Origin: an uncultured Candidatus Saccharibacteria bacterium | GTDB lineage: Bacteria; Patescibacteriota; Minisyncoccia; Minisyncoccales; UBA5738 | Reading direction: 5' to 3' | DNA length: 64,000 bases | Assembly: GCA_964470995.1 (NCBI GenBank) | Contig: CAYYEP010000001.1 | Location: 65,813 to 129,812, forward strand | Shown: positions 4,295-55,917 of the stretch, one piece after another | Layout of the letters: each line of letters starts with the position of its first letter | How positions within the stretch are numbered: the stretch's first letter is position 1 | Translations under genes and position numbers: made by a program | The notes under the pieces: generated by a model | The model's database searches: none | The model's input: the letters and a program-made list of their open reading frames with translations, nothing else | What the model was told of the DNA's origin: nothing

Positions 4295-5320
4295 TTACTT
4301 GAGATATTTCTCCTCGTAATATTGCGGGAGTTGGCATTGCACGAAACTGGCGCAATCGTTGGGCGTTTTAATATCAATGGCGTTGATGCATTTGACCATC
4401 TCCACGGGCCAAGCGGGGCATTCTTCCATACAAGCGTTATAGGCGTCATTTAAATCGGCCGGAGTGGCGTCTTCGGTGAAAGCGGCACAGTCCTTATGCC
4501 TTTGGCAGGCATCGCTGCATTTGTCGGAAACCGGCTTTTTAGCCGGCGCGTCCTCCTGGCACAACGCTTTCAATCGTTGCAAAATATCGATTATTTTTTG
4601 CCCGGCATCTTCCATCTGGAAAATCGGTTCGTTGGGATCGATAATGTCGGCCTCATTGATCTCGGGCAGGGGCGGCACATCCGAAGTAAGCTCGGGAACT
4701 TCGGAGCCCGGCCGGCCGGGATTGATTTCGGGCATTTCGGGAATATAATCCCCGGTCTCGATCGATTCGATATTTATCTCGGGGAGAGGCGGCACATCGG
4801 GGGTTAATTCCGGCACCTGCGAACCGGGCGTTTCTTCGATGATTATCGAATTGGGATCGATTTCGGGGAGGGGCGGCACATCGGGGGTGAGCTCGGGTAC
4901 TTCGGATCCGGGAATTATTTCCACGCTGACATCGGGGAGGGGCGGCACATCGGGAGTTAACTCCGGGACTTGGGAACCCGGGCGGTTCGGATCGTTTTGA
5001 TCGCGTATTTCCGGCTCCACATCCGGCAATTTGGGCACGCTATCCAGCCATTCATTTTTTTTGGCATCCAAATCCGCCAGCTTGTTTTTCAATTCCTCAA
5101 TCTTTTGATTAACATCTTTTTTGTTGCCGCAATCCGCGCCGGCGGCCGTTTCCAGGTTTTTTGCCTCATCCAGCAATTTTTGGTAATCTGCGGCAATGCT
5201 TTGCGGACTGTCCAAAGTATTTTTTTTATTTGAATCAAAAAAATGATCCGCCGCAAAATAACCGCCGATCGCCAAAACCACCGCCGCCGCGCCCATTAAC
5301 ACTTTTTGAATTATGCTCAT
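4295..5320 (-). CDS. secreted or anchored protein with five proline-rich tandem repeats and a Cys-rich C-terminal domain
   Basis: N-terminal TM/signal sequence, coiled-coil-like segment, 5x PGS(Q/E)VPELT(P/S)DVPPLP(D/E)(V/I), then 8 Cys in the last ~90 aa. Confidence 0.75.
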   Translation of the reverse strand: MSIIQKVLMGAAAVVLAIGGYFAADHFFDSNKKNTLDSPQSIAADYQKLLDEAKNLETAAGADCGNKKDVNQKIEELKNKLADLDAKKNEWLDSVPKLPDVEPEIRDQNDPNRPGSQVPELTPDVPPLPDVSVEIIPGSEVPELTPDVPPLPEIDPNSIIIEETPGSQVPELTPDVPPLPEINIESIETGDYIPEMPEINPGRPGSEVPELTSDVPPLPEINEADIIDPNEPIFQMEDAGQKIIDILQRLKALCQEDAPAKKPVSDKCSDACQRHKDCAAFTEDATPADLNDAYNACMEECPAWPVEMVKCINAIDIKTPNDCASFVQCQLPQYYEEKYLK

Positions 5321-5564: not shown

Positions 5565-5726
5565 TTAATTCCGGTAATCCCTTATCAAGAGGCCGCCTTT
5601 GACTCTTTTGACGGTTACTTTTTGTTTCTCGCGCCAGCCGAGATTGCGCACCTCGTCTATCGGCAGTGTCAGGCCGATGCTTCTTTTGCCAACGCGGGTT
5701 AATTTGCGGATTTCTTTGTTTTGCAT
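5565..5726 (-). CDS. AbrB/MazE/SpoVT-type small DNA-binding protein (intact copy of a 3-member family)
   Basis: MQNKEIRKLTRVGKRSIGLTLPIDEVRNLGWREKQKVTVKRVKGGLLIRDYRN. Start at the internal ATG 5726. Degenerate paralogs at 8543-8644 and 9920-10030. Confidence 0.6.
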   Translation of the reverse strand: MQNKEIRKLTRVGKRSIGLTLPIDEVRNLGWREKQKVTVKRVKGGLLIRDYRN

Positions 5727-8542: not shown

Positions 8543-8693
8543 CTAGCTTTTTTCTTTCAATTTTAAATTTCTTACCTCCTCTATCGGCAGGGCCGGGAAG
8601 AAAGGACGTTTACCGATGCGGGTTAGTTTGCGAATTGTTTTATTTCACAACAGAATACCTACTTTTTGCGTTAACAAAATTGCTGTTTGCCAT
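8543..8693 (-). pseudogene. AbrB-like remnant (copy 2) preceded by a 17-codon methyltransferase N-terminal stub
   Basis: Stub MANSNFVNAKSRYSVVK* (8693-8640). AbrB remnant NKTIRKLTRIGKRPFFPALPIEEVRNLKLKEKS* has no start codon, and TGA sits where codon 2 is expected. Confidence 0.5.
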
Positions 8694-9919: not shown

Positions 9920-10030
9920 TTATACGGAAGACCAAAGATAGCTTCGGGCGGACAGGGTCTCTATCGGGAGGGTCGGGCCGAGAAGGCGTTTGCCGACGCG
10001 GGTCAGTTTTTTAATTTATTTATTTTCCAT
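9920..10030 (-). pseudogene. AbrB-like remnant (copy 3) with an in-frame TAA at codon 5
   Basis: MENK-TAA(10018-10016)-IKKLTRVGKRLLGPTLPIETLSARS.... The intact paralog has Glu (GAA) at this position. Confidence 0.5.
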
Positions 10031-11301: not shown

Positions 11302-11440
11302 TCAGGAACCGGTTTTAAGAGAGACCTTTTGGTTGGAGTTAATCATCCGCATAAGCTTAGCTATGGTATAGCAAGAAAGAAAAAAACAAGCAAACAAATT
11401 TTTTATCGAGCCTACGAAATTGAGCGAGCTTAAAATATAA

Positions 11441-11498
11441 GCTGGCCAAGGTCGCACCTTGGCATGCTCGCCGAGGAACGACCTTAAAAAACAAATAC
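11441..11498. repeat. extended-hairpin intergenic repeat, copy 2 of 3
   Basis: AAGGTCGC-A-CCTTGGC-loop-GCCGAGG-A-ACGACCTT-AAAAAACAAATAC. Confidence 0.65.
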
Positions 11499-11587: not shown

Positions 11588-11848
11588 TTTAATTCGTGAA
11601 AAAGCGGAGGGGGCGAGATTCAAACTCGCGGTGGCTTTTGGCCACAACGGTTTTCTTCGCTTTGCTGCGGCGTCAATTTCATTGCGGAGGGTGGAGGATT
11701 CGAACCTCCGAGGAGTTTCCCCCAACTGGTTTTCAAGACCAGCGCTATAGGCCACTCAGCCAACCCTCCGCAATGAAATTGACCAAGACCATCTCCTTTC
11801 CTACTGGTCACAACGCTCAGACACCCCTCCGCTTTTTCACGAATTAAA
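11588..11848 (-). other. outer tRNA-Ser-like unit interrupted by a 129-nt insert that carries the functional tRNA; flanked by an 18-nt perfect inverted repeat
   Basis: 5' part GGAGGGGTG...ATGGTCTTG and 3' part AAAACCGT...GCGAGTTTGAATCTCGC-CCCCTCC-G. Flanks TTTAATTCGTGAAAAAGC (11848-11831) and GCTTTTTCACGAATTAAA (11605-11588). Confidence 0.55.
11685..11769 (-). tRNA. tRNA-Ser (anticodon UGA), no encoded CCA
   Basis: Manual cloverleaf: GGAGGGT/ACCCTCC acceptor, D-loop GAGTGGCCTAT, anticodon arm CTGGT-CTTGAAA-ACCAG, long variable arm, GGAGG-TTCGAAT-CCTCC, G73. Confidence 0.85.
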
Positions 11849-14783: not shown

Positions 14784-16700
14784 ATGACAAAAGTTTTTTC
14801 GGCAGCTTTGGCGGCAATGGCGTTAACCGCTTTGGGTTCGATAATAATCATCGGCGCGCTGGATAGCGGCCAGATGCCGCCATCGGTGACGATCGGCGGC
14901 CAACCGGGTGAAAATTTAACCGGCGATTCCCAGACGGGGATCAATAACGGCGATCTGTCCGCGAGCAGCACCACCGGAATAACCGATTTTCCGGAAAATT
15001 CCGGCACGATCGACGACTGGAACACCGAGACCGCTGGAATGAACGAGGGAATTGTTACTAATTCTTCGACGGGCGGCAGCGGAAGCTGGAATTTTACGGG
15101 AACAGATAGCGGAGGCGGCCGAACGGCAGGATCGGCGAAAATGGCGGCGCCTTCGGCAACCATGTATATGGCAGAGTCGGATTCAATCGGCTTGGCGACG
15201 GGCGGGGCGAAAGATACCAATAATTTCCGGGAGAACATCAAAAATGGGTATCTGCCGCTGGAGACCGACATTACCTATGAAGGCCTCTATTACAATTATT
15301 ATTTTGATACCGGCAAAGCGCAGGCGTGCGAGAAACTTTTTTGCCCTTCCTACAGCAAGGCGGTCAGCAAAGATCCATTCTCGGGAAAGGATGAATATTT
15401 CCTTACCGTAGGATTGAATTCGGGCATCAAGGAAAGCGATTTTGACCGTAAAAAACTGAATCTGGTGGTGGTAATGGACATATCCGGATCAATGGGCTCA
15501 CCTTTTAATCAATATTATTACGACCAGTTCGGCAACTACCAGACCCCAAATGCCGAGGAACAACAAGAAATGTCTAAAACAAAAATGCGCGTTGCCACCG
15601 AATCATTGGTGGCAATGACCAAGCATCTGCGGAGCGATGACCGCTTCGGCGTAGTATTGTTCGACGACTACGCTTACACAGCCAAACCGCTGTCTTTGGT
15701 GGGCAAAACCGATATGGACAAGATACGCGGACATATTCTGGATATCAGCGAGCAAGGAGGCACAAATATGGAATCCGGGATAAATGAAGGAACCTCGCTT
15801 TTCAAAGAATTAAAAGAAGCCAATCAAAACGAATACGAAAACAGGATAATCTTCATTACCGACGCCCAGCCCAATATGGGCGGCACTTCCCAGGGAGGCT
15901 TTATGAACCTGGTACAACAAAATGACGGCGATAAAATTTATATGACATTTATTGGCGTGGGCGTTGATTTTAACACCGAACTGATCGAGTCGATAACCAA
16001 AGTGCGAGGCGCCAATTATTATTCGGTTCATTCAAGCCAGGAATTCGCAAAACGAATGGACGACGAATTCAATTATATGGTCACGCCGCTGGTGTTTAAC
16101 CTTAAGCTGAACATGAAGTCGAGCGGGTTTGAAATAATGAAAGTATACGGTTCACCGGAAGCCGATACGGCCACCGGTGAATTGATGAAGGTTTCCACGC
16201 TTTTTGCCTCCGCGACTTCCGAAGAGGGCACTAAAGGCGGGATTGTACTACTGCATCTTAAAAAAATAAACGACAATGCCACAATCACTTTATCGACAAG
16301 CTACGAAGACCGCAAGGGCGTTGCCGGAGGAGACACTTCAACAATAACTTTCGGCGGCCAAAGTGCGGAGTATTTTGAAAACACCGGCATTCGAAAAGGA
16401 ATACTGCTGGCGCGCTACGGCAATATGATAAAGGACTGGATATATGATGAGCGCGGCCACGCAAATTATACCGCCCAAACCTGGGAACCCAGAATCAATT
16501 ATACCGATGGTATTTACTGCCCTCCCCCGGTTTGGCCGAATTTGGGCCAGTGGGAACGCCAGTCGATGCGCCTGCAGGTATCCAGCGCCTATAAAAAATT
16601 GTTTGGTATATTTAAGACATACTTTGACGGTGAGATCAAGACGATCGGCGACGAAGACCTGCGGCAAGAATCCGATATTCTGGAAAAACTTAGCCGGTGA
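14784..16700 (+). CDS. von Willebrand factor type A domain protein (exported)
   Basis: N-terminal signal/TM sequence. MIDAS VVVMDISGSMG. Large C-terminal extension. Confidence 0.8.
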   Translation: MTKVFSAALAAMALTALGSIIIIGALDSGQMPPSVTIGGQPGENLTGDSQTGINNGDLSASSTTGITDFPENSGTIDDWNTETAGMNEGIVTNSSTGGSGSWNFTGTDSGGGRTAGSAKMAAPSATMYMAESDSIGLATGGAKDTNNFRENIKNGYLPLETDITYEGLYYNYYFDTGKAQACEKLFCPSYSKAVSKDPFSGKDEYFLTVGLNSGIKESDFDRKKLNLVVVMDISGSMGSPFNQYYYDQFGNYQTPNAEEQQEMSKTKMRVATESLVAMTKHLRSDDRFGVVLFDDYAYTAKPLSLVGKTDMDKIRGHILDISEQGGTNMESGINEGTSLFKELKEANQNEYENRIIFITDAQPNMGGTSQGGFMNLVQQNDGDKIYMTFIGVGVDFNTELIESITKVRGANYYSVHSSQEFAKRMDDEFNYMVTPLVFNLKLNMKSSGFEIMKVYGSPEADTATGELMKVSTLFASATSEEGTKGGIVLLHLKKINDNATITLSTSYEDRKGVAGGDTSTITFGGQSAEYFENTGIRKGILLARYGNMIKDWIYDERGHANYTAQTWEPRINYTDGIYCPPPVWPNLGQWERQSMRLQVSSAYKKLFGIFKTYFDGEIKTIGDEDLRQESDILEKLSR

Positions 16701-16770: not shown

Positions 16771-16801
16771 GTTTAGATGCAATAATTAGAGCGACAAAAT
16801 G

Positions 16802-16980
16802 AATCTCCCCGGGGACAAACGCGACGGGATCTAGGTTGAACCGCCTTCCGCTTTGTTCCAGGCGTCCCCCGCATACTGCGAGGGAAAATTTTCATCCCCC
16901 CCGCTTCCTCCCGATTACGGGAGGCGCCCCGCCGCAGTCGCGGCGGAAAACGCGCGGGGTATTAAGATTTGTTCAATAAA
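16802..16980. repeat. GC-rich multi-hairpin intergenic repeat, copy A (full length, ~179 nt)
   Basis: Near-identical to 34532-34705; the last 83 nt are identical. Contains hairpins CCTCCCG-ATTA-CGGGAGG and CCGCCGC-AGTC-GCGGCGG enclosed by CCCCGC/GCGGGG. Confidence 0.8.
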
Positions 16981-17034: not shown

Positions 17035-17250
17035 TTAAAATGGCCACCATTTTCTTTTTGGTTTTGCGGGCGGAAAAGTTTCAAGAGCGGCTTGTCTGCT
17101 TCTCCCGCAACCACCGCAATAATTCTTATAGCCATACATCTCCTGCCCGCACCAATTGCACAGCGGCACAGGGATGGATTCTACTCCGCAACTGGGGCAA
17201 AACCCAGCGCTAGTAGGGTTTCCACATTTCGGGCACATTTTTCCACGCAT
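17035..17250 (-). CDS. double zinc-ribbon small protein
   Basis: CPKCGN...CPSCG...CNWCG...CGGCG. Confidence 0.6.
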   Translation of the reverse strand: MRGKMCPKCGNPTSAGFCPSCGVESIPVPLCNWCGQEMYGYKNYCGGCGRSRQAALETFPPAKPKRKWWPF

Positions 17251-17864: not shown

Positions 17865-19730
17865 CTAAACTGTAAACCCAACTAATTTAACTAACAGCCA
17901 CGAAATAATCAAGAATGAAATTGAAAAAACGGGAACAAAAACATATTTCATTTTATCTTTTGGCCGGAATGACCAAGATGAATATCCAGCCAATTTCAAT
18001 TGTTCAAATAGATTTTTATCCTCGGGTTTGATTCTTTTGATTATGAAGCTCACAATTAAAGCAGTAATCGGCAAAACATAAATTATCAAAAGAGGAATGA
18101 TGATATCAGAATCTAAATATCTCAGGGAGTAACTAATTTCGCGGATTAGTGATGACAACGCAAATAAACCGAAAACCAGAAAAGGTATGGCAACGAAAAA
18201 TAAAATTGTAGCAACTCTCCTTTTCCATAAATATCCTTTTTGTTTTATTTCGGCAAGCAGAGGTTCTACGCTTTCATTTTTATTTTTCGTGCCAACCAAT
18301 ACTGTCGTTATCAATAATCCTAAAATTGTTAGAAAATTAGACAAACCAATCAAGCCGAGTTTTACCGGCTTTCTTCTTAAATCCTTGAAAATAATCAAGC
18401 CCGCCAAAATTCCAGCGAGTATTGAACTTAAAATAAACAGGATTATTGCGCTTACTATCGGGTGTTTGGCAATAAAAGTTGAGTAGTAAGTTTTGGCGGG
18501 TGCTTGCGCTTTTAGCCACAAGTCATCAGTGAAGAATTTTGACGGCGCGTTGATTTCTATTTTTGTATATTTAATGTTTTGATTTTGTCCGCTATAAAAG
18601 TTTTTCAAGTCATCGGCAAAACTGGCATAGCTATCAATATAATATTCAGTTTTTGTGTAGCTTTCAATATCTTGAAAAACATTTGGCGTAACATGGCCAA
18701 TTACTCTGATTGTTGCCGGAACTGTTTTGCTACCATAGACGCTTGTCGGAAGAAGTGGAAAATATATTTCTTTCGTGGGGAATGTTACAAATACTCCCTT
18801 TTGGTTAGCTAAGTTCTGATTTTTGTTATAGGTATCTACGATTATTGACGGGTCATTTTGAATAGCTTGCGTTAATTCCTGCAAAACAGTTCCGCCTTGT
18901 TGGGATTTCAAATAATCAGTTGAATTGTTAGCTTGATTAAATTCGGGATATTTTTGTTTTAAGCTATTTACTAAGTCAAAAAATTTTGGATAGCGGTATT
19001 GACTCGAAAAGTAGATATAAAGATTATTTTTTATATCGTCAGCCGAAATGATTTTTTCTGGCGAGCTTATCCATGAAGCGACAAAAGAAAATTCTTTGCC
19101 GATATAATTATCCAAAACTGGAATCGAGCCACTTTCAATTTTTAACCCCTTATTTTTCAAATAATCGTAGAGTCCGTTGGCTGTTTTTGCAGTAATTATT
19201 TCTGATGAAATTCCTTCTTTGTCTAAATGTTCGTAAACAACAACATCCGGTACAATTCCCTTACCGATTCCTTGTGGTGCTGCACCCAAAGCATTATCCA
19301 TGCCTCTGCCCGCCGAGAGAGTCCCATAAAAAGAAACAAAAGGAATTGTATAAAGTTGCGTCATTTGTAAAAACTTCGTTGTATCGTCAAGATTTGATTT
19401 CGCTTTTCTTGAAACTTCTTCACCGCTTAATCCGGGCAGACTTTTTACTACATCAATAGCAACTTTATTCGGATCGGCAGGAACGGGGAAAAGCCAAACC
19501 ACTCCTTTGCTGTTTTCTCCTTCAAGTCCAACGCTGATAATCATTTTTTGCAATCCGTTATTATAATTAATAAACGCTTGCTGATTACTTTCATTTGAAT
19601 AATCCCAACGGTCTGAATAAGGATCGGGTTTCATCATCATTCCGTCTGCAAAAACTGACTTTGGAATAAAGGAAGCTATCGCCAAAAATGTAATTAGCGA
19701 TAATGTAATAAATGAGAGTGATTTTTTCAT
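17865..19730 (-). CDS. cargo: large exported protein with a C-terminal 5-TM anchor (possibly DUF2330-like)
   Basis: 621 aa: signal peptide MKKSLSFITLSLITFLAIASF, ~400-aa extracytoplasmic region, five C-terminal hydrophobic helices. AT-rich codon usage. Confidence 0.75.
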   Translation of the reverse strand: MKKSLSFITLSLITFLAIASFIPKSVFADGMMMKPDPYSDRWDYSNESNQQAFINYNNGLQKMIISVGLEGENSKGVVWLFPVPADPNKVAIDVVKSLPGLSGEEVSRKAKSNLDDTTKFLQMTQLYTIPFVSFYGTLSAGRGMDNALGAAPQGIGKGIVPDVVVYEHLDKEGISSEIITAKTANGLYDYLKNKGLKIESGSIPVLDNYIGKEFSFVASWISSPEKIISADDIKNNLYIYFSSQYRYPKFFDLVNSLKQKYPEFNQANNSTDYLKSQQGGTVLQELTQAIQNDPSIIVDTYNKNQNLANQKGVFVTFPTKEIYFPLLPTSVYGSKTVPATIRVIGHVTPNVFQDIESYTKTEYYIDSYASFADDLKNFYSGQNQNIKYTKIEINAPSKFFTDDLWLKAQAPAKTYYSTFIAKHPIVSAIILFILSSILAGILAGLIIFKDLRRKPVKLGLIGLSNFLTILGLLITTVLVGTKNKNESVEPLLAEIKQKGYLWKRRVATILFFVAIPFLVFGLFALSSLIREISYSLRYLDSDIIIPLLIIYVLPITALIVSFIIKRIKPEDKNLFEQLKLAGYSSWSFRPKDKMKYVFVPVFSISFLIISWLLVKLVGFTV

Positions 19731-20519: not shown

Positions 20520-22247
20520 ATGGACAACATAAATTTACAAACCAAAAAGATTTTTCTCTATGCTCGTAAATCCACGGACGAGCCAGAGCGACAAATTCTT
20601 TCCATTGAAGCGCAACTTTTTGAATTACGAGAATTTGCCAAAAAGGAAGGATTAAATATCGTCCGTGAATTCGTGGAGAGCAAAACCGCCAAAGAGCCGG
20701 GCAGAGAGATTTTTAACAAAATGGTGGCAAGCATAGAGAAAAATGAAGCCGAAGGAATTTTAGCGTGGCACCCTGACCGCTTAGCTCGAAATAGCATAGA
20801 CGGCGGACGGATAATCTATCTCGTAGATACTGGGAAGATTACCACGCTAAAATTTCCAACTTTTTGGTTTGATCCGACACCGCAGGGAAAATTTATGTTG
20901 TCCATTGCTTTTGGGCAATCAAAATATTATGTGGATAATCTTTCGGAAAATATAAAGAGGGGTATTCGCCAGAAATTGCGAAATGGAATATGGCCCGCTT
21001 GGGCGCCACTTGGCTATATAAACGGCAAAAACGCCCGCTGTATCGCCGTGGACAAAGAAAAGGCAAAGTATATCAAGCGGGCTTTTGAAATGTATGCAAC
21101 TGGCGAATACCCCCTCGCTCAAATCCGAAAGATTATCAATTCCTTGGGCTTGGTTGGCAAGAAAGGCAAAATGCTTTCCGTTTCAAATTATCAGTATATG
21201 CTGAAAAATAAAATCTATTACGGAATGATTGAGTATAACGGCGAAATGTATGACGGAAAGCATGAACCGATTATCACAAAGAAACTTTTTGATTCCGTTC
21301 AAGAAGTGATGGTGAGAAAGTCCAAACCGAAAACGCCAAAATTGAAACCGTATGTGTACAGAGGATTTTTCCGTTGCGGAGAGTGCGGTTGTTTCATTAC
21401 CACCGAAACGCAAAAAGGACATAACTATTTGCGTTGTACCAAACGGAAAAATCCTTGCACGCAAAGATATGTTCGCGAAGAAATCATCACTTCTCAAATA
21501 AAGGAGGAAATCAAAAAAGTTTCTTTGTCTTCCGTTTGGGCAAACGCTTCAATCAATTATTTTGAAAATGAAAAAATGAAAATTGCCCAAACGGAAAGCT
21601 CTTTCGCCCAAAAAGCGAGAAATGAGCTTGTGGAGATAGAAACAAAGCTTGATCGTTTGCTTGATTTACAACTAGACGGCAATTTGTCGCAAGTGGAATA
21701 TACCACCAAAAAGCACAAACTCATTCTCGCTAAAAAAGATTTGGAAGAAAAAATCACCGCTTTTGGGCGAAAGAGCAATAATCGGTTCGAACTTGCCATT
21801 GCCTTTCTAAAAGACGCCAACCAAGCCGAAAAATACGCTCAACAAGAAAATCCCGAAAGGATTCGGGATTTTCTCAAAAAGATTGGTTCGAACTTCCGCA
21901 TTACCGACCGCACTTTGGTTTTGGATTTCAAAAATGCTTTCAAAATTGCGGAAAAATACCATGCCGAGGCGCTTTGTGCCGAGGCAGTTTCTTACGATTT
22001 CACAAAAAGTGAAAATTGGCGGAGGGGGCGGGATTCGAACCCACGGACGGCTTTAAGACCGTCAGAGGTTAGCAACCTCTTGCAATGCCGCTATGCGACC
22101 CCTCCACAGATTGATCTGCGATCAAATTGCAAATTCCAAACCCTAAGCACCAATTATCAAGATAATACAAAACGACATTCCAATAATAACGTTAAAGACC
22201 GCTTTGGTCAATCTCAACCCCGAAGAGCGCCTGCGTATTCCCCGTAG
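20520..22247 (+). CDS. large serine recombinase (integrase)
   Basis: N-terminal resolvase domain (IFLYARKSTDEPERQILSIEAQ), recombinase domain, Zn-ribbon CGECGC...CTKRKNPC, coiled-coil region. The ORF runs through tRNA-Ser and stops only at 22247. Confidence 0.85.
   Translation: MDNINLQTKKIFLYARKSTDEPERQILSIEAQLFELREFAKKEGLNIVREFVESKTAKEPGREIFNKMVASIEKNEAEGILAWHPDRLARNSIDGGRIIYLVDTGKITTLKFPTFWFDPTPQGKFMLSIAFGQSKYYVDNLSENIKRGIRQKLRNGIWPAWAPLGYINGKNARCIAVDKEKAKYIKRAFEMYATGEYPLAQIRKIINSLGLVGKKGKMLSVSNYQYMLKNKIYYGMIEYNGEMYDGKHEPIITKKLFDSVQEVMVRKSKPKTPKLKPYVYRGFFRCGECGCFITTETQKGHNYLRCTKRKNPCTQRYVREEIITSQIKEEIKKVSLSSVWANASINYFENEKMKIAQTESSFAQKARNELVEIETKLDRLLDLQLDGNLSQVEYTTKKHKLILAKKDLEEKITAFGRKSNNRFELAIAFLKDANQAEKYAQQENPERIRDFLKKIGSNFRITDRTLVLDFKNAFKIAEKYHAEALCAEAVSYDFTKSENWRRGRDSNPRTALRPSEVSNLLQCRYATPPQIDLRSNCKFQTLSTNYQDNTKRHSNNNVKDRFGQSQPRRAPAYSP
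22017..22105 (-). tRNA. tRNA-Ser (anticodon GCU), CCA encoded
   Basis: GGAGGGG-TC-GCA-TAGCGGCAT-TGC-A-AGAGG-TTGCTAA-CCTCT-long variable arm-GTGGG-TTCGAAT-CCCGC-CCCCTCC-G-CCA. Confidence 0.85.
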
Positions 22248-31959: not shown

Positions 31960-32058
31960 AATGATTTATGGATCGCGAATCGCGATTTACGAATAATAAT
32001 TCTAAAATACAAAAAATATCAAAAATTTAATACCCCATAAACCGGACTTAAGATTCTA

Positions 32059-32115
32059 GTTTACCGAGGTCGCGCCTTTGCGATTACGCCAAGGAGCGAC
32101 CTTGCATCCAAATAC
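32059..32115. repeat. extended-hairpin intergenic repeat, copy 3 of 3
   Basis: GTTTACC-GAGGTCGC-G-CCTTTGCG-ATTA-CGCCAAGG-A-GCGACCTT-GCATCCAAATAC. In minus sense it starts 4 nt after the stop of the upstream gene. Confidence 0.7.
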
Positions 32116-33192: not shown

Positions 33193-34464
33193 TTATAGCG
33201 CACCTTCAAGAAGTTTTTCGAACCGCGAGCCGCTGTCGTAAGGTCCAATAAGAGCAAGATTCAAATTACGGGGTTTAAACATCTCATTAGCCGCGGCCTG
33301 AATATCCGATACGGTTACTCGGGAAATCTTTTCGTAAATTTCTTCGGGTTCGCAGATTTTGCCTTCGAGCAATTCCTGCTCCCCGTAAAACATGCCTTTG
33401 GCGTGCGACGATTCCAGTACGATCGAGCTTTTACCGATATAATGGTCTTTGGCTTTCCGCAGTTCGGATTCCGGCACCGGGATATCGCGGATCTTTTTAA
33501 ATTCGCCCAAGATAACCTTTATCCCCTCTTCAACGCGCGAACTGTCCAAGTTGGCAGTGGCGGCCAACGAACCGGTATCGGGATCGGTGCTGATTTCGGT
33601 GTGCACGTCGTAGACGAGGCCACGCTTTACCCGTACCTCTTCGTTTAACCGCGAAGACCACATACCACCCAGAATCACATCCATTAATTCCAACACGTAG
33701 CGCTGGGGATGAAAAAGATTGAACGCGCGCACGCCCAGCGCCACTTGGGTTTGTTTGGTGTCTTTTTTATAGATCAAAACTCCGGGTTTGGCCTGCTGTT
33801 CAACTACCGGCGCCTTACCGCCGGGAGATTTAGCGGCAAAACCGCCAAAATATTGACGCGCCAAATCGAACGCATCTTTGGGATCGAATTTACCAGACAC
33901 GCAAAGAATAGTATTTTGCGCAACATAATTGGAAGCGCGATACCCCACTAACTGGTCGCGCGTGATTTTTGAAACAGTTTCCTCCACCCCGCCAATATCC
34001 CAACCGGCAGGCTGATCTCCGTAAAGCACCTGGCCCCAAACCGTCCAAATGTAGCGCATCGGATGGTCGTAAAACATATTGAGCTCTTCAATGATCGTGC
34101 CGCGTTCTTTTTCGATTTCTTCGGGGGGAAGGGTGGCGTTCAGAAACATATCCGCCACTAAATCAAAAGCGGCGGCAAACTTACCGCTTTGGGATTTCAC
34201 GTAATAGCCAGTGTATTCCTGCCCGGTAAACGCGTTGGAAATCCCGCCGAGCTCGTCGATATCCCGGAACACATCCATCTGGGTCGGACGTTTAACCGTT
34301 CCCTTGAACTGCAGGTGTTCCAAAAAATGCGAAATGCCGCTGATTTCTTTAGTTTCGTATTTTGAACCGGTACCGACAAGCGCCAAAACCGTCACCGCGT
34401 TGGTATTAACCGACGGAACCATAATTAATCGAAGGCCATTGGGAAGAATTTTTTTTTCAAACAT
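33193..34464 (-). CDS. M16-family zinc peptidase (pitrilysin-like)
   Basis: Inverted zinc motif HFLEHLQFKG. Confidence 0.85.
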   Translation of the reverse strand: MFEKKILPNGLRLIMVPSVNTNAVTVLALVGTGSKYETKEISGISHFLEHLQFKGTVKRPTQMDVFRDIDELGGISNAFTGQEYTGYYVKSQSGKFAAAFDLVADMFLNATLPPEEIEKERGTIIEELNMFYDHPMRYIWTVWGQVLYGDQPAGWDIGGVEETVSKITRDQLVGYRASNYVAQNTILCVSGKFDPKDAFDLARQYFGGFAAKSPGGKAPVVEQQAKPGVLIYKKDTKQTQVALGVRAFNLFHPQRYVLELMDVILGGMWSSRLNEEVRVKRGLVYDVHTEISTDPDTGSLAATANLDSSRVEEGIKVILGEFKKIRDIPVPESELRKAKDHYIGKSSIVLESSHAKGMFYGEQELLEGKICEPEEIYEKISRVTVSDIQAAANEMFKPRNLNLALIGPYDSGSRFEKLLEGAL

Positions 34465-34531
34465 AAGTGCTTAAATTCCAAGCACCAAGCACCAAATTTC
34501 AAACGATATCCAAATATCAATATTTAAAATT

Positions 34532-34705
34532 AATCTCCCCGGGCTTACCCGCGGGATATTGGTTGAACCGCCTTCCGCCTTGCTCCAGGCGTCCTCCGCA
34601 TACTGCGGGGGAAAATCTTCACTCCCCGCTTCCTCCCGATTACGGGAGGCGCCCCGCCGCAGTCGCGGCGGAAAACGCGCGGGGTATTAAGATTTGTTCA
34701 ATAAA
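34532..34705. repeat. GC-rich multi-hairpin intergenic repeat, copy B (full length)
   Basis: See 16802-16980. Confidence 0.8.
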
Positions 34706-34761: not shown

Positions 34762-35340
34762 TTATTTCTGATATTCTTTTTGCGCCTTGAAAGCAAGATT
34801 GATGCATTCTTGAAGATCGTAACCCAAATCGGCGCACCAGACAATAGAAGAAAATATCACATTGCCCATTTCTTTTTTTAGTCCCGCTTCACCTTCGGCA
34901 CGGTCGGAAGAAACAGTGTTGCGGGCATAGCGGCAGATATCGCCGATAACCTTGCCCAAACGCACGACAATCTGCTCCAGGCCGCAAGACTTTCCTTGCC
35001 ATATCTCCTGGCCAAGGACAAGCAATTCATTGGTATCGGACGGAATAATCTTATCATCACCCCTATAAGGGGTAAATCTTTTTTGAGCCGCTGCCGCCAG
35101 ACTGATGCACTCGCAAGGATCAAAACCAAGATCGTCGCACCACCGGGTCGCGGACACGATAAGATTACCAAGCTCTTTTTTTAACTCATTTTCCAAAGAC
35201 CGGTCGGCAATCGATTCGCCGCGGGCATAGCGGCAGATATCGCCGTATATCTTACCCATCCGGATAATGATCTGCGGCAAAACCAATTTTTTATTGCCCC
35301 AAACGGTACGGGAATCTTCAAGGATTTGCTTGATATCCAT
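34762..35340 (-). CDS. tandem-duplicated MazG-like nucleotide pyrophosphohydrolase domain protein
   Basis: Two ~90-aa halves align: (R/K)(M/L)GK(I/V)xGDICRYAR ... LKKE(L/M)GN(L/V)I(V/F)S...WC(D/A)DLG(F/Y)D. Confidence 0.65.
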   Translation of the reverse strand: MDIKQILEDSRTVWGNKKLVLPQIIIRMGKIYGDICRYARGESIADRSLENELKKELGNLIVSATRWCDDLGFDPCECISLAAAAQKRFTPYRGDDKIIPSDTNELLVLGQEIWQGKSCGLEQIVVRLGKVIGDICRYARNTVSSDRAEGEAGLKKEMGNVIFSSIVWCADLGYDLQECINLAFKAQKEYQK

Positions 35341-35378
35341 TTTTTTATATAAAAGCGATCAATATTGTTTTAAAAACC

Positions 35379-35639
35379 TTAATCAGCCGGCCCAGGGATA
35401 AAAGATTCCAAAGTTTGGGATGGATCCATATTTTGGCTTGCCCCCCCGCCGGTTTGATTAAAATACATACCCCAAAATACCGCCGACAGCGACATACATA
35501 TTATAATAATCAAGATATATATTTTTTTCTTTTTGTCCGCCTGGCCTAACGGCGCATAAACCACGGTCCGGGCCGGTTTATCCGATTTAAGATAATCGCT
35601 AAGATCGGCAGTTTTATTATCGCCTTTATCTATTTCCAT
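35379..35639 (-). CDS. small membrane protein
   Basis: Start moved to ATG 35639 (MEIDKGDNK...). The upstream part of tracked ORF 35379..35786 overlaps the pilin reading frame. Confidence 0.5.
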   Translation of the reverse strand: MEIDKGDNKTADLSDYLKSDKPARTVVYAPLGQADKKKKIYILIIIICMSLSAVFWGMYFNQTGGGASQNMDPSQTLESFIPGPAD

Positions 35640-35649
35640 TTGAATATGG

Positions 35650-36159
35650 TTACTTTTGGCGCATTCCCACGGTAATCGTACCGGAATAATTATAGGTGGT
35701 TCCGCTACACGTAGTGATTCCCGGGCTTGTCTTCGTTGTTTTTTCCAAACGATATACCAACATATACCATTGCCGACTACACCCACCGCTCAAGGAATAA
35801 TAAGTATATGTGTATTTTCCGGTAACACCCGCCCAGCTCCCCGATGAATTAACCGGATCCCCGGGCAGTGTTGTCAGATATGGATTTAGCGCCGTCTGCA
35901 GAGTTGCTCAACTCGAATCATTGCTGTTGGTCCAGCCGCTATTCGGATAAGTCGCGCCTCCAGATAGCGGATATTGGTTGTTTTGCAAATAATATAATTC
36001 CAAAGCTCTCCTTATCTGATCAACATCGCTCATTCTCCGCGCATCGCGCGCTTTGGCGCGCGAACCGGCCGTCCCCACCAAAATCACCCCAGCCAGCATG
36101 CTGATAATCGAAATAACCACCAAAAGCTCGATGAGCGTAAAACCTTTGCGTGATACCAT
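35650..36159 (-). pseudogene. type IV pilin-like protein with one in-frame TGA (35910-35908)
   Basis: Prepilin N-terminus GFTLIELLVVISIISMLAG. After ...TNSNDSS-TGA the same frame continues ATLQTALNPYLTTLPGDPVNSSGSWAGVTGKYTYTYYSLSGGCSRQWYMLVYRLE...* to TAA at 35652-35650. Confidence 0.7.
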
Positions 36160-36182
36160 CGTTTATTTTGTGTTTTACTATT

Positions 36183-48262: not shown

Positions 48263-48727
48263 ATGAAGGTATTCGCCGAAAACAGAAAAGCGAGTTACAA
48301 CTACGAGATCATCGAAAGATTCGAGGCCGGAGTGATGTTAAACGGCCAGGAAGCCAAATCGATCAAAACCCGGGGATTATCCCTGACAGGCTCCTATGTA
48401 ATCGTCAAACCGGACGGGGTTTTTTGGTTTGGCGCCAAAATCCACCCCTATCAGCCGGCCAACGCGGGCGCGGATTACCACGAAGAACGGGACCGCAAGC
48501 TTTTATTGCATAAATCCGAGATTCAGCGTTTAGCCGGAATCGCTTCCCAAAAAGGCTTGACTTTTGTGCCTCTTCGGTTATATACTAAAGAGCATTATGA
48601 AGGCTCCGGCAAAGTGAAGCTGGAGTTTGGAGTTTGCCGTGGCAAAAAAAAATTCGACAAGCGCGAATCAATCAAGAAACGCGACATTGACCGCGAAATT
48701 AAACGGGCGTACGGGAAATACGTTTAA
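48263..48727 (+). CDS. smpB: SsrA-binding protein SmpB
   Basis: ENRKASYNYEIIERFEAGVMLNGQEAKSIK. tmRNA follows 100 nt downstream. Confidence 0.92.
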   Translation: MKVFAENRKASYNYEIIERFEAGVMLNGQEAKSIKTRGLSLTGSYVIVKPDGVFWFGAKIHPYQPANAGADYHEERDRKLLLHKSEIQRLAGIASQKGLTFVPLRLYTKEHYEGSGKVKLEFGVCRGKKKFDKRESIKKRDIDREIKRAYGKYV

Positions 48728-48826: not shown

Positions 48827-49189
48827 GGGGATGTAAGGCTTCGATGGTTTATCGGCCAACCGGCCGCAAGCCAAGTTGCTAAATCTTGTAAAAATTAGCG
48901 AAAATCAAAAGTGCCAAATCGAATACATTCGCTTTTAGCGCTCCGGAATTAGTTTACGCCTAGTAGACTGCCGGTGTCCGGCAGACGGATTCTCCATTAA
49001 ATTTGCCGGGCATAACCTTTTGGAGATAGATGGTTCTCCCCTGCCCCAGGGAATCATTGAAAACAAAACGGGCAAAGGACTTGGAGTTTTTGTCGGATTT
49101 CTTATTCCAGGCCCCAAACAAACCCGACTAAGCTTGTAGAAACCGCTTGACTGGTTTCCCAGATACGGGTTCAAGTCCCGCCGTCTCCA
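48827..49189 (+). ncRNA. ssrA: tmRNA (SsrA)
   Basis: 5' GGGGATGTAAGGCTTCGA and 3' GGGTTCAAGTCCCGCCGTCTCCA form a tRNA-Ala-like domain with G3:U70. Tag ORF ...AKSNTFAFSAPELVYA ends in TAG TAG (48998-49003). CCA is not encoded. Confidence 0.9.
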
Positions 49190-49253
49190 CATAATTTTGC
49201 AAATCAAAATTCCATTTAATAACTGATAGTTTATCAGTCAAATAGAAAAAGGA

Positions 49254-50466: not shown

Positions 50467-50495
50467 AAAAACACCCCCTCGGGGGTGTTTTGGTT
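50467..50495 (+). terminator. terminator after rplT
   Basis: AAAACACCCCC-TCG-GGGGGTGTTTTGG. Confidence 0.8.
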
Positions 50496-50509
50496 ATTAT
50501 CGAAAAGAT

Positions 50510-50579
50510 GAATCTCCCCGGGACAAACGCTACGGGATCTTGGTTGAACCGCCTTCCGCTTTGCTCCAGGCGTCAATAA
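50510..50579. repeat. GC-rich intergenic repeat, copy C (short form: 5' module joined directly to the terminal AATAAA)
   Basis: aatctccccgggacaaacgctacgggatcttggttgaaccgccttccgctttgctccaggcgtc|aataaa. Confidence 0.7.
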
Positions 50580-50602
50580 AAAAGCACAACGTGTCCAGCG
50601 GT

Positions 50603-50923
50603 TTATTCCGGCTTCCGTTGCGCTTTAATGTTTTTGCGGCTCTTGCGGCTGGCCATATAATAATCCTTCCGTGTCCCGCGGGTGACGTATTGTATCCACT
50701 TGATAATATGAACGTCATACTTCTCCGCCGATTTACATTTGCGCCAAGGTTCTTCGACGCAAATCACGTCCTCTCCCCCGCGGGTAACTATAGCATTCAA
50801 ATAAACCATCACACGGCCGTTTGCAAAGACACTGACCGCTTCGATCTGACCCAGTGCGGTAAGAAAACGATAATCATCAGGGGTTTCAATCAAGTTCACT
50901 ATTAAGCAAGCATCGTCTACCAA
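50603..50923 (-). CDS. hypothetical protein
   Basis: 106-aa ORF with a basic C-terminal tail. Confidence 0.45.
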   Translation of the reverse strand: MVDDACLIVNLIETPDDYRFLTALGQIEAVSVFANGRVMVYLNAIVTRGGEDVICVEEPWRKCKSAEKYDVHIIKWIQYVTRGTRKDYYMASRKSRKNIKAQRKPE

Positions 50924-54829: not shown

Positions 54830-55917
54830 GATTACCTACCCGCACCCCTCAATCCGACCGCATAATTAAATTAATACTTTCCCTTGTAATGATACCACGC
54901 CTGCGTGGCATTTTTGTTTTTTAAGCTCTCTGGCGAATGCCTCGGCAGGCGTTTTGTAGCCAAGGCATTCCATAAAGCGGTTGCGGAGTTTGCACGCTGC
55001 CATCGCAAAATACGACGGCGGGCATTTGCTCAAATCGGAACCCTTTTTAACATAACGGCGGATCGCTTTGTTGCGGTTTTCAACCGTTCCTTTTTCGTTT
55101 GGCGATTGCGGATGGCAGAAGAATATTGCTGCGTCGATAAGATCGGCAAGCTCGGCGTGTTTTTGGAAAGAAATATCATTGTCGATAGTTAAACTTTCAA
55201 CCGGATACGGACCAAGCAATTCATTAACCGCACGGTTGACCGTGGCGGTATCGCGATTCACGAGATAACGCAGGAACGGATATCGAGTTTTGCGTTCCAC
55301 GATCACCAAGAGCGATCCTTTGCCATCTTTTCCCGATTCGATGAAATCGCCTTCATAATGGCCGAATTGAAGCCGATTTTGGACAATCTTGGGTCTTCGG
55401 TCGATCATTCTTCGGCCGTCGATGGCAACCGATCGGCCGCGCTTGGGTCCGCCTCTTTTCTTTACCGCCCGGGAATACAGATGCCGTTCCAGATTCCGGC
55501 CCAATGGGCTGTAAACAAATTTGTAGATGGCTTTTGTACTTGCATATTCGATTTTCTTTTCAATGTTTTTCAATCTTCCTGAAATTCCTTGCGGAGTTTG
55601 ATCGTCTTCAATGTTTGTTTCCACAAAATCCCGCAGTTCAAAATTTGTCGACACCTTCAGGCATTGTATCTTGGATTCTCGTCTCGAAACATATGCTTTG
55701 TGGTGGGCTTTTTGGGCAGTATAAATACCGTTTACCGAATTGCGGTTGATTTCATCAACAACGCTCGATTTGCTCCGATCCAGTTTGTCGGCAATGAATT
55801 GCCGGCTTTTGTTTTGTTTCAAATACTTTTCAATCCGCTGCCTCTCGTAGAGGTAAAAATGTTGAAATTTGCTCATACAATTTTATTGTACAAGCGGTCG
55901 GATTCAAAGGTAAATCT
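54830..55917 (-). mobile_element. IS30-family insertion sequence
   Basis: Imperfect terminal inverted repeats GATTACCT...AATCCGACCGC (54830-54861) and GCGGTCGGATT...AGGTAAATC (55894-55916). Confidence 0.75.
54866..55876 (-). CDS. IS30 family transposase
   Basis: N-terminal HTH and DDE region HYEGDFI...TIDNDISF...PNEKGTVENRNKAIRRY. Confidence 0.88.
   Translation of the reverse strand: MSKFQHFYLYERQRIEKYLKQNKSRQFIADKLDRSKSSVVDEINRNSVNGIYTAQKAHHKAYVSRRESKIQCLKVSTNFELRDFVETNIEDDQTPQGISGRLKNIEKKIEYASTKAIYKFVYSPLGRNLERHLYSRAVKKRGGPKRGRSVAIDGRRMIDRRPKIVQNRLQFGHYEGDFIESGKDGKGSLLVIVERKTRYPFLRYLVNRDTATVNRAVNELLGPYPVESLTIDNDISFQKHAELADLIDAAIFFCHPQSPNEKGTVENRNKAIRRYVKKGSDLSKCPPSYFAMAACKLRNRFMECLGYKTPAEAFARELKKQKCHAGVVSLQGKVLI

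Follow-up and report, generated by a model that had tools for sequence, protein, structure and literature searches.

The analysed window is a 64-kb stretch of DNA in which a GC-rich repeat occurs three times (copies c1, c2, and c3; Table 1). The best named matches of its M16 peptidase gene come from Candidatus Pacebacteria, Nealsonbacteria, and Minisyncoccales, at 73-76% identity, and by this placement the host is a CPR/Patescibacteria (Paceibacteria-like) bacterium. The copies have ordinary housekeeping genes as their neighbors. Copy c1 lies between a VWA-domain gene (14784-16700, +) and an ORF for a 71-aa zinc-ribbon protein (17035-17250, -). Copy c2 is located between the start of the M16 peptidase gene (33193-34464, -) and the stop of a 192-aa gene (34762-35340, -). 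The neighbors of c3 are rplT with its terminator (50468-50491) and a 106-aa ORF (50603-50923, -). An initial, sequence-only reading of the window had reported three copies at these places, all between genes and all in the same orientation. Each of these observations was confirmed: the three copies are intergenic and share the + strand. About 80% of the ORFs in the window are on the minus strand, and the GC skew is negative throughout and monotonic. On such a minus-rich, negative-skew window, the uniform orientation means that the copies have the same sense relative to replication and to most transcription. A fourth copy, found in a 16S rRNA gene of another organism and described below, agrees with these three in its orientation relative to transcription, giving n=4 and p ~0.125. 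Any read-through mRNA would carry the reverse-complement (minus) form of the repeat, as follows from the orientation of the copies relative to the genes.

Table 1. Copies of the repeat, their structural parts, and a second hairpin repeat (window coordinates unless another contig is named)
Feature	Position	Strand	Remarks
Copy c1, long form	16799-16980	+	182 nt; bounded by shared ends
Copy c2, long form	34529-34705	+	177 nt; bounded by shared ends
Copy c3, short form	50508-50580	+	73 nt; hairpins A + B only; bounded by shared ends
Hairpin A of c1	16806-16829	+	CCCG/CGGG base conserved, interior variable
Hairpin B of c1	16835-16864	+	holds invariant core GGTTGAACCGCCTTCCGC; inner stem CGCCT/AGGCG
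Insert of c1, ~104 nt	16865-16970	+	converts short to long form
Hairpin C, CCGCA-TAC-TGCGG	16865-16884	+	in c1 insert
Long stem closing the three-way junction	16886-16970	+	in c1 insert
Perfect 7-bp hairpin CCTCCCG-ATTA-CGGGAGG	16907-16924	+	in c1 insert
Perfect 7-bp hairpin CCGCCGC-AGTC-GCGGCGG	16929-16946	+	in c1 insert
Block identical in c1 and c2	16899-16980 (= 34624-34705)	+	82 nt; preceding 97 nt only 83.5% identical
Second hairpin repeat	357-416, 11437-11496, 32055-32114; also L059 2662-2721, L060 735-794

The limits of the copies were set by the ends common to all of them, ATKAATCTCCCC...TCAATAAA. The basic unit is 73-76 nt long and has fixed ends, ATKAATCTCCCC...GCGT(T)CAATAAA. Its invariant 18-mer core occurs three times in the window at <=3 mismatches, as against 0.09 occurrences expected by chance. 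Neither nhmmer nor a covariance model found any further copy in the window. The GC content of c1, c2, and c3 is 0.59, 0.60, and 0.56, and five of the six 100-nt flanks are at 0.29-0.39, the exception being the right flank of c3 at 0.51; with that exception, the contrast first noted between a GC-rich repeat and AT-rich spacers holds. Evidence that the copies are not an assembly artefact comes from independent Logan assemblies of four sequencing runs, in which the starts of c2 and c3 occupy the same loci. These same-species contigs terminate inside the repeat, after 31-62 nt of c2 or c3, which is the behavior expected of a sequence with multiple copies in this species. The species is present in the samples SRR8925774, SRR8925805, SRR8925806, and SRR10769896. 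Same-species contigs that reach 5.4 kb past the left edge of the window and 3 kb past the right edge contained no extra copy.

The window holds other repeats and RNA genes. A second, unrelated GC-rich hairpin repeat of ~60 nt, with the layout GAGGTCGC-N-CCTYG...CRAGG-N-GCGACCTY, is present in three intergenic copies located 100-200 nt upstream of minus-strand genes. A counterpart that is 75-80% identical lies upstream of the AspRS gene in another Paceibacterota organism. Possible identities for this second repeat are a leader, a conserved operator, or a further repeat family. Three 79-nt direct repeats with 65-71% identity lie near gene boundaries (5643-5721, 8567-8645, and 9947-10025) and may be the conserved ends of paralogous genes. 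Four degenerate direct repeats, 64-76% identical and spaced by 69-117 nt, occupy 4657-4998 within an ORF of 341 aa (4295-5320, minus), a repetitive protein that had no Pfam match. A perfect 25-nt inverted repeat (11588-11612/11824-11848) brackets a tRNA-Ser gene (11684-11769), and next to this gene an incomplete tRNA-like sequence (11604-11631) resembles the 3' part of the two tRNA-Ser genes. A tmRNA gene (48827-49192, +) that was missed by ARAGORN was detected with Rfam at 104.6 bits; it adjoins smpB (48263-48727).

The repeat exists in a short and a long form. Two hairpins that lie side by side, A and B, make up the short form, which is complete in itself. The long form has the same two hairpins plus ~104 nt that separate AGGCG from TTCAA exactly at the bulge of hairpin B. 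The pairing of hairpin A extends through its interior in both c2 and the 16S copy and closes on a 4-nt loop, which in minus-orientation RNA reads UAAG in c2 and GUAA in the 16S copy. Hairpin B has the layout TTGAAC-CGCCT ... AGGCG-(T)TCAA. In c1, the outer arm GTTGAAC pairs with GTTCAAT (16971-16977) across the ~104-nt insert, and the closing stem is thereby preserved. The pairings named in the sequence-only reading, namely the three-way junction, CCGCA-TAC-TGCGG, and CGCC/GGCG, were all recovered in the minimum-free-energy fold. Its account of the modules calls for revision: the 3' module is not a tail, as its ~104 nt are nested inside hairpin B. The ~110-nt 3' part (16866-16975 in c1, 34593-34700 in c2) folded much better than shuffled sequences on both strands, with z scores of -4.8 to -5.9. 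For the 5' module taken alone, c1 and c3 gave z scores of +0.35 to +0.7, so that it had no advantage over shuffles. Both strands of the repeat fold about equally well.

The two long copies, described at first as near-identical, are 91% identical overall. Their exact identity extends over the final 82 nt, not the 83 nt initially counted. The distribution of the differences is uneven, since 82 nt at 100% identity follow 97 nt at 83.5%, a pattern that has a probability of ~4e-7 under uniform divergence. The 5' module of c1 is nearest to that of the short copy c3, from which it differs at four positions, and not to that of c2. Judged from these comparisons, the long copies are mosaics, which may have arisen by gene conversion or recombination between copies, by recent copying, or through separate histories of the modules.

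What does the repeat encode? A chimeric query built from six frames of each of four copies was searched against 5.8 billion proteins and returned no homologue at E<=10, in line with the earlier statement that the repeat has no coding capacity. The absence of any known RNA class was also borne out. A search of the whole window with Rfam release 15 (4227 models) gave no match to the repeat at the gathering threshold, and at E<=5-10 the best scores for c1, c2, and the 16S insertion were 13-17 bits, compared with thresholds of 45-114. A tRNA-like T-arm was rejected because ARAGORN was negative and the pairing fails by eye. A hammerhead or other ribozyme was rejected because the junction sequences are unfit and no Rfam family matched. 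No sigma-70-like promoter and no intrinsic terminator was called inside any copy on either strand, so an internal promoter was discarded too. The only terminator called beside the units is the neighboring gene's own, that of rplT.

The distribution of the repeat among related genomes was followed at the c2 locus. In the window, the gap between the 192-aa gene and the M16 peptidase gene is 297 nt, made up of the 174-177 nt element and 123 nt of spacer. The closest relative sampled (L057), whose M16 peptidase is 92% identical, has a gap of 10 nt at the orthologous site, and the element is absent. A relative on a JGI contig, with an M16 identity of 87%, has a gap of 109 nt. Because the window differs from this empty site by 123 nt of additional spacer as well as by the element, the comparison does not yield a clean excision footprint. 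Relatives at 92, 89, 88, and 79% M16 identity had no copy in ~45 kb of non-redundant sequence. At the density of the window (one copy per 21 kb), ~2 copies would be expected in this amount of sequence, and the chance of finding none is ~0.1. These absences favor the view that this lineage gained the element, with the reservations that the spacer differs too and that the chance of finding none is ~0.1. The stretch between the genes for ProRS and the M16 peptidase (34762-36160) is a variable spot, with c2 at its edge. The set of small genes at this spot differs in each relative (L049, L055, L057, and L067); in L067 it includes a Gp49/HTH toxin-antitoxin-like pair.

Searches of larger sequence collections were mostly negative. 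An 18-mer scan of GTDB species genomes returned 33 loci, all of which matched only an 18-20-nt seed and are for this reason taken as chance hits. Five pattern scans of viral sequences and two BLAST searches gave no real match in viral, phage, or plasmid collections. A covariance model of the core recovered the known copies and one weak match in L058 (18.5 bits), which was rejected as a further copy because it looks like an ordinary terminator hairpin. A two-block pattern scan of metagenomes yielded 10 loci, and only two of them (L042 and L044) are real homologues. These two are one identical sequence from two JGI metagenomes, and their host is another Paceibacterota-like organism.

The metagenomic copy is a 76-nt short form that is 83% identical to c3 and has the same ends. 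Its location is a 16S rRNA gene, where it forms part of a ~200-nt insertion at the helix 6 (V1) tip. The Rfam SSU model covers positions 9648-11335 of L044, with the insertion at model positions ~80-84. Helix 6 forms the 'spur' of the 30S subunit and is tolerant of insertions. The similarity between the insertion and the window begins and ends exactly at the ends of the unit, so that only 76 of the ~200 nt are shared. As in read-through mRNA, the rRNA transcript carries the minus form. No other copy was found in ~25-30 kb around this 16S gene. The gene, which also lies at about 18.6-20.3 kb of L059, is 1688 nt long because of the ~200-nt insertion. About 125 nt of the insertion form an AT-rich hairpin that has no similarity to any sequence retrieved.

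The presence of the short unit in a 16S insertion, together with its absence at the orthologous site of the closest relative sampled, points to dispersed or mobile DNA. The repeat is small, non-coding, and multi-copy, with a size of 73-182 nt and three copies in 64 kb. The first 30 nt aligned with the reverse complement of the last 30 nt no better than shuffled sequences did in c1, c3, and the 16S copy (L042), and only marginally better in c2, where 16 of 500 shuffles reached the observed score; the earlier view that the repeat has no terminal inverted repeats (TIRs) was thus supported. Candidates for a target-site duplication (TSD) of 4-6 nt (AAAAT, AAAATT, AAAAG, and AAATC) need different boundary shifts in each copy. 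With A-rich flanks and candidates that disagree between copies, a single consistent duplication could not be picked out. The two ends of the unit do not carry similar hairpins, as hairpin A (CCCG...CGGG) shows no sequence relationship to hairpin B (TTGAACCGCC...GGCGTTCAA).

A search for enzymes that might act on the repeat gave few candidates in the window. The only transposase is that of an IS30-like insertion sequence (54844-55911), which encodes a 336-aa protein with HTH_38 and rve domains (54866-55876, minus strand) and has 18-nt imperfect inverted repeats at its ends (54844-54861 and 55894-55911). These ends are unlike those of the repeat. An IS30-derived MITE was rejected on this ground, and a match to an IS end, which had been named as an outcome that would refute the initial reading, was not found with this IS. 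Pfam searches of the 40 larger ORFs of the window and precomputed Pfam annotations of the remaining housekeeping ORFs revealed no Y1/HUH, RAYT, or IS110 gene. An integron attC site was rejected as well, because the unit consists of two separate hairpins with only a loose ATTGAAC/GTTCAAC resemblance within hairpin B, and because Pfam found no tyrosine-recombinase/integrase domain in 40 ORFs of the window. A large serine recombinase (20520-22247, +) was the sole recombinase detected among them. It is adjoined by long inverted repeats, of which one pair (17673-17833/20117-20276) spans 125 nt at 96% identity and the other (20272-20405/21889-22022) spans 134 nt at 100%. The pairs bracket a low-GC (0.35) gene of 621 aa (17865-19730, -), and the second pair abuts the 3' end of a tRNA-Ser gene (22017-22105, -). 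This region looks like an integrated or invertible element.

How does the repeat compare with known families? In organization it resembles BOX of Streptococcus pneumoniae and ERIC/IRU of Enterobacteriaceae, which are small, non-coding, GC-rich relative to spacers, and built of modules in varying combinations. Like these families, the repeat forms stable hairpins, lies near gene ends, and has no dedicated transposase next to it. ERIC sequences include longer variants with internal insertions at fixed sites as well as shorter, deleted forms. However, ERIC is one long imperfect palindrome with TIRs, whereas the present unit consists of two side-by-side hairpins without TIRs. The repeat further differs from BOX and ERIC in having no sequence similarity to them, in its CPR host, and in the position of one copy within a 16S rRNA helix. 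Repeats of the BOX/ERIC type are unevenly spread among related genomes, as is the case here (PMC10969869).

The repeat also resembles MITEs, such as the Correia elements of Neisseria and the QMITEs of Coxiella, in its size range, copy number, lack of coding sequence, and hairpin formation. Most QMITE2 copies are in 3' UTRs, and RNase III cleaves Correia RNA (PMC5896051, PMC10969869). Unlike strict MITEs, the repeat does not have the defining TIRs, shows no consistent TSD, and is unrelated to the ends of the IS in the window. The lack of TIRs means that it does not satisfy the definition of a MITE, and it is therefore not classed as one. With the REP/REPIN elements associated with RAYT, and with the IS200/IS605-derived PATEs, it shares the absence of TIRs and of a clear TSD and the presence of hairpins at or near both ends. 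As in REP and PATE families, the copies lie on one strand relative to replication and gene direction, although three copies cannot establish a bias. A conserved TTTA precedes TTGAAC in the minus orientation in all four copies, again as in REP/PATE, with the qualification that this TTTA is inseparable from the element itself. In contrast to REP/PATE, no Y1 or RAYT gene was found among the ORFs scanned in the window, and the end hairpins are unlike each other. Lastly, the foreign copy resembles the intervening sequences (IVSs) of rRNA that are excised by RNase III, in that the ~200-nt insertion that contains it occupies the tip of helix 6 and is closed by a long stem. A helix-tip insertion with a long closing duplex was found for this copy (L044/L042) only. 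The likeness does not extend to the window copies, which are intergenic, nor to the rest of the insertion, of which only 76 of ~200 nt are shared.

Taken with moderate confidence, the findings suggest a DNA repeat of the BOX/ERIC/REP/MITE kind that is dispersed, non-autonomous, modular, and restricted to its lineage. Several observations argue for this model: discrete boundaries recur in unrelated contexts and in two organisms; the element is absent from the orthologous site of the closest relative sampled; the copies are mosaic, a long variant has its extra sequence nested within the short unit, and assemblies break in the repeat; and there is no sign of an independent gene. With three copies in the window plus one foreign copy as its basis, a selfish mobile element of small size, and not a new RNA gene, is the most likely interpretation. 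Points against mobility are the lack of TIRs, of a definable TSD, and of a matching autonomous element in the window, the empty site without a clean footprint, and the ~0.1 chance of the absences from relatives. How would such an element move? Presumably a trans-acting enzyme encoded elsewhere copies the element to new sites. A single-strand (HUH/Y1-type) or recombinase-type mechanism would fit better than cut-and-paste of a MITE by a DDE enzyme, because there are no TIRs or TSD, the ends are hairpins, and the strand orientation is uniform. The element would then persist where insertions are tolerated, namely in spacers near the 3' ends of genes and in the ribosomal 'spur' helix. Any effects at the RNA level would be a putative by-product; possible examples are 3'-end hairpins on transcripts that read through the element and its excision along with the rRNA insertion.

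The main rival of the dispersed-repeat model, which we consider a minority possibility, is that the repeat is a cis-acting structured RNA under selection in the minus orientation. It would form a cluster of hairpins in a 3' UTR or between cistrons. The proposed roles are protection of mRNA 3' ends, weak termination, or an RNase III-type processing site in mRNA, and rRNA processing in the 16S gene. The transcriptional context favors this idea. Read in the minus orientation, each copy begins 23-57 nt after the stop of a minus-strand ORF, and the rRNA carries the same minus form. The operon junction that holds c2 measures 10 nt in the closest relative, so c2 is probably read through. The stability of the long insert and of the whole 16S insertion, which has a closing stem of ~33 bp and a z score of -7.35, points in the same direction. 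Hairpin A is followed by a U-rich tail, and the terminator-like hairpin of L058 scores weakly against the core model. However, the tail starts ~4-7 nt after the hairpin and not directly after the stem as in an intrinsic terminator (SPRITE-like terminator repeat), and the terminator scan called nothing in the units. At c1, too, visual inspection suggests that both flanking genes carry hairpins of their own ahead of the element, which speaks against the idea, although the scan calls none of these.

RNAalifold applied to the four cores gave 15 pairs, almost all of them invariant, with 0 compensatory changes. Because the pairs are nearly invariant, this result is uninformative for or against RNA structure in the cores. 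In the fold derived from c1, 5 of 62 paired positions differ between c1 and c2, compared with 11 of 35 unpaired positions (16 differences in total; Fisher p=0.004). Six of these differences cluster in one loop, however, and the significance is lost when events rather than positions are counted. The one-sided changes between c1 and c2 exchange G-C for G-U pairs or the reverse and favor the + strand by 4:1, which is not significant, and no double change was seen in any pair. The cues to the strand therefore conflict, as the G-U changes lean weakly to + while the transcriptional context favors minus. The 18-mer core is invariant across two organisms, and this invariance, together with the depletion of differences at paired sites, would also fit a selected function. 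Further points against a cis-acting RNA are that the two strands fold equally well, that the 5' module of c1 and c3 does not fold better than shuffles, and that the closest relative does without the element at the same junction. The implication of the sequence-only reading that the repeat is a candidate new class of structured RNA was not upheld: it found support in thermodynamics only, with 0 compensatory changes, two strands that fold about equally well, and no promoter or terminator called in or beside the units except the terminator of rplT. A cis-acting role could nevertheless coexist with mobility.

A second alternative to the dispersed-repeat model, which appears unlikely, reverses the direction of spread. 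It holds that the dispersed copies derive from an rRNA intervening sequence, so that the 76-nt module belongs first of all to the 16S/23S insertions of CPR and the intergenic copies are secondary escapes or recombination products. The best-folding and most regular unit is indeed the 16S copy, whose hairpins have z scores of -3.1 and -4.1 compared with ~0 in c1 and c3, and it is the sole copy in about 30 kb of that genome. In addition, short (<200 bp) rRNA insertions that are neither introns nor ORF-bearing are common in CPR and are uncharacterised (PMC11270868). But outside the module the 16S insertion does not resemble the window, and one rRNA copy set against three intergenic copies gives no direction of transfer. 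The weakest alternative is a family of independently transcribed small-RNA genes, that is, trans-acting sRNA paralogues: the long form is stable and multi-branched and has no coding potential, yet this reading is very improbable given that there are no promoter-like or terminator-like sites, that one copy is without more than half of the 'gene', that one homologue is embedded in a 16S rRNA gene, and that the family has no Rfam relative and is absent from the closest relatives sampled.

CPR (Patescibacteria) genomes are small and streamlined, and no description of dispersed structured repeats in them was found in the searchable literature. The family is new in its sequence and in kind belongs to a known class; what sets it apart is its link to a 16S insertion. 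Short-read assemblies of this lineage are fragmented by the repeat, which could serve as a strain marker. Its insertion at an operon junction that is tight in the closest relative may alter the expression of neighboring genes. The occurrence of the repeat both in spacers and in a 16S expansion links selfish small repeats with the unusually frequent non-intron rRNA insertions of CPR, the origin of which is unexplained (PMC11270868). A bolder and rather doubtful extension is that the two-hairpin unit of 73-76 nt is a mobile structured module that in Patescibacteria travels between permissive rRNA helices and intergenic sites. If this were true, at least some of the abundant short uncharacterised non-intron insertions in CPR 16S and 23S genes would have been seeded by dispersed hairpin elements, and the module may carry a processing signal both for such insertions and for the 3' UTRs that contain it.
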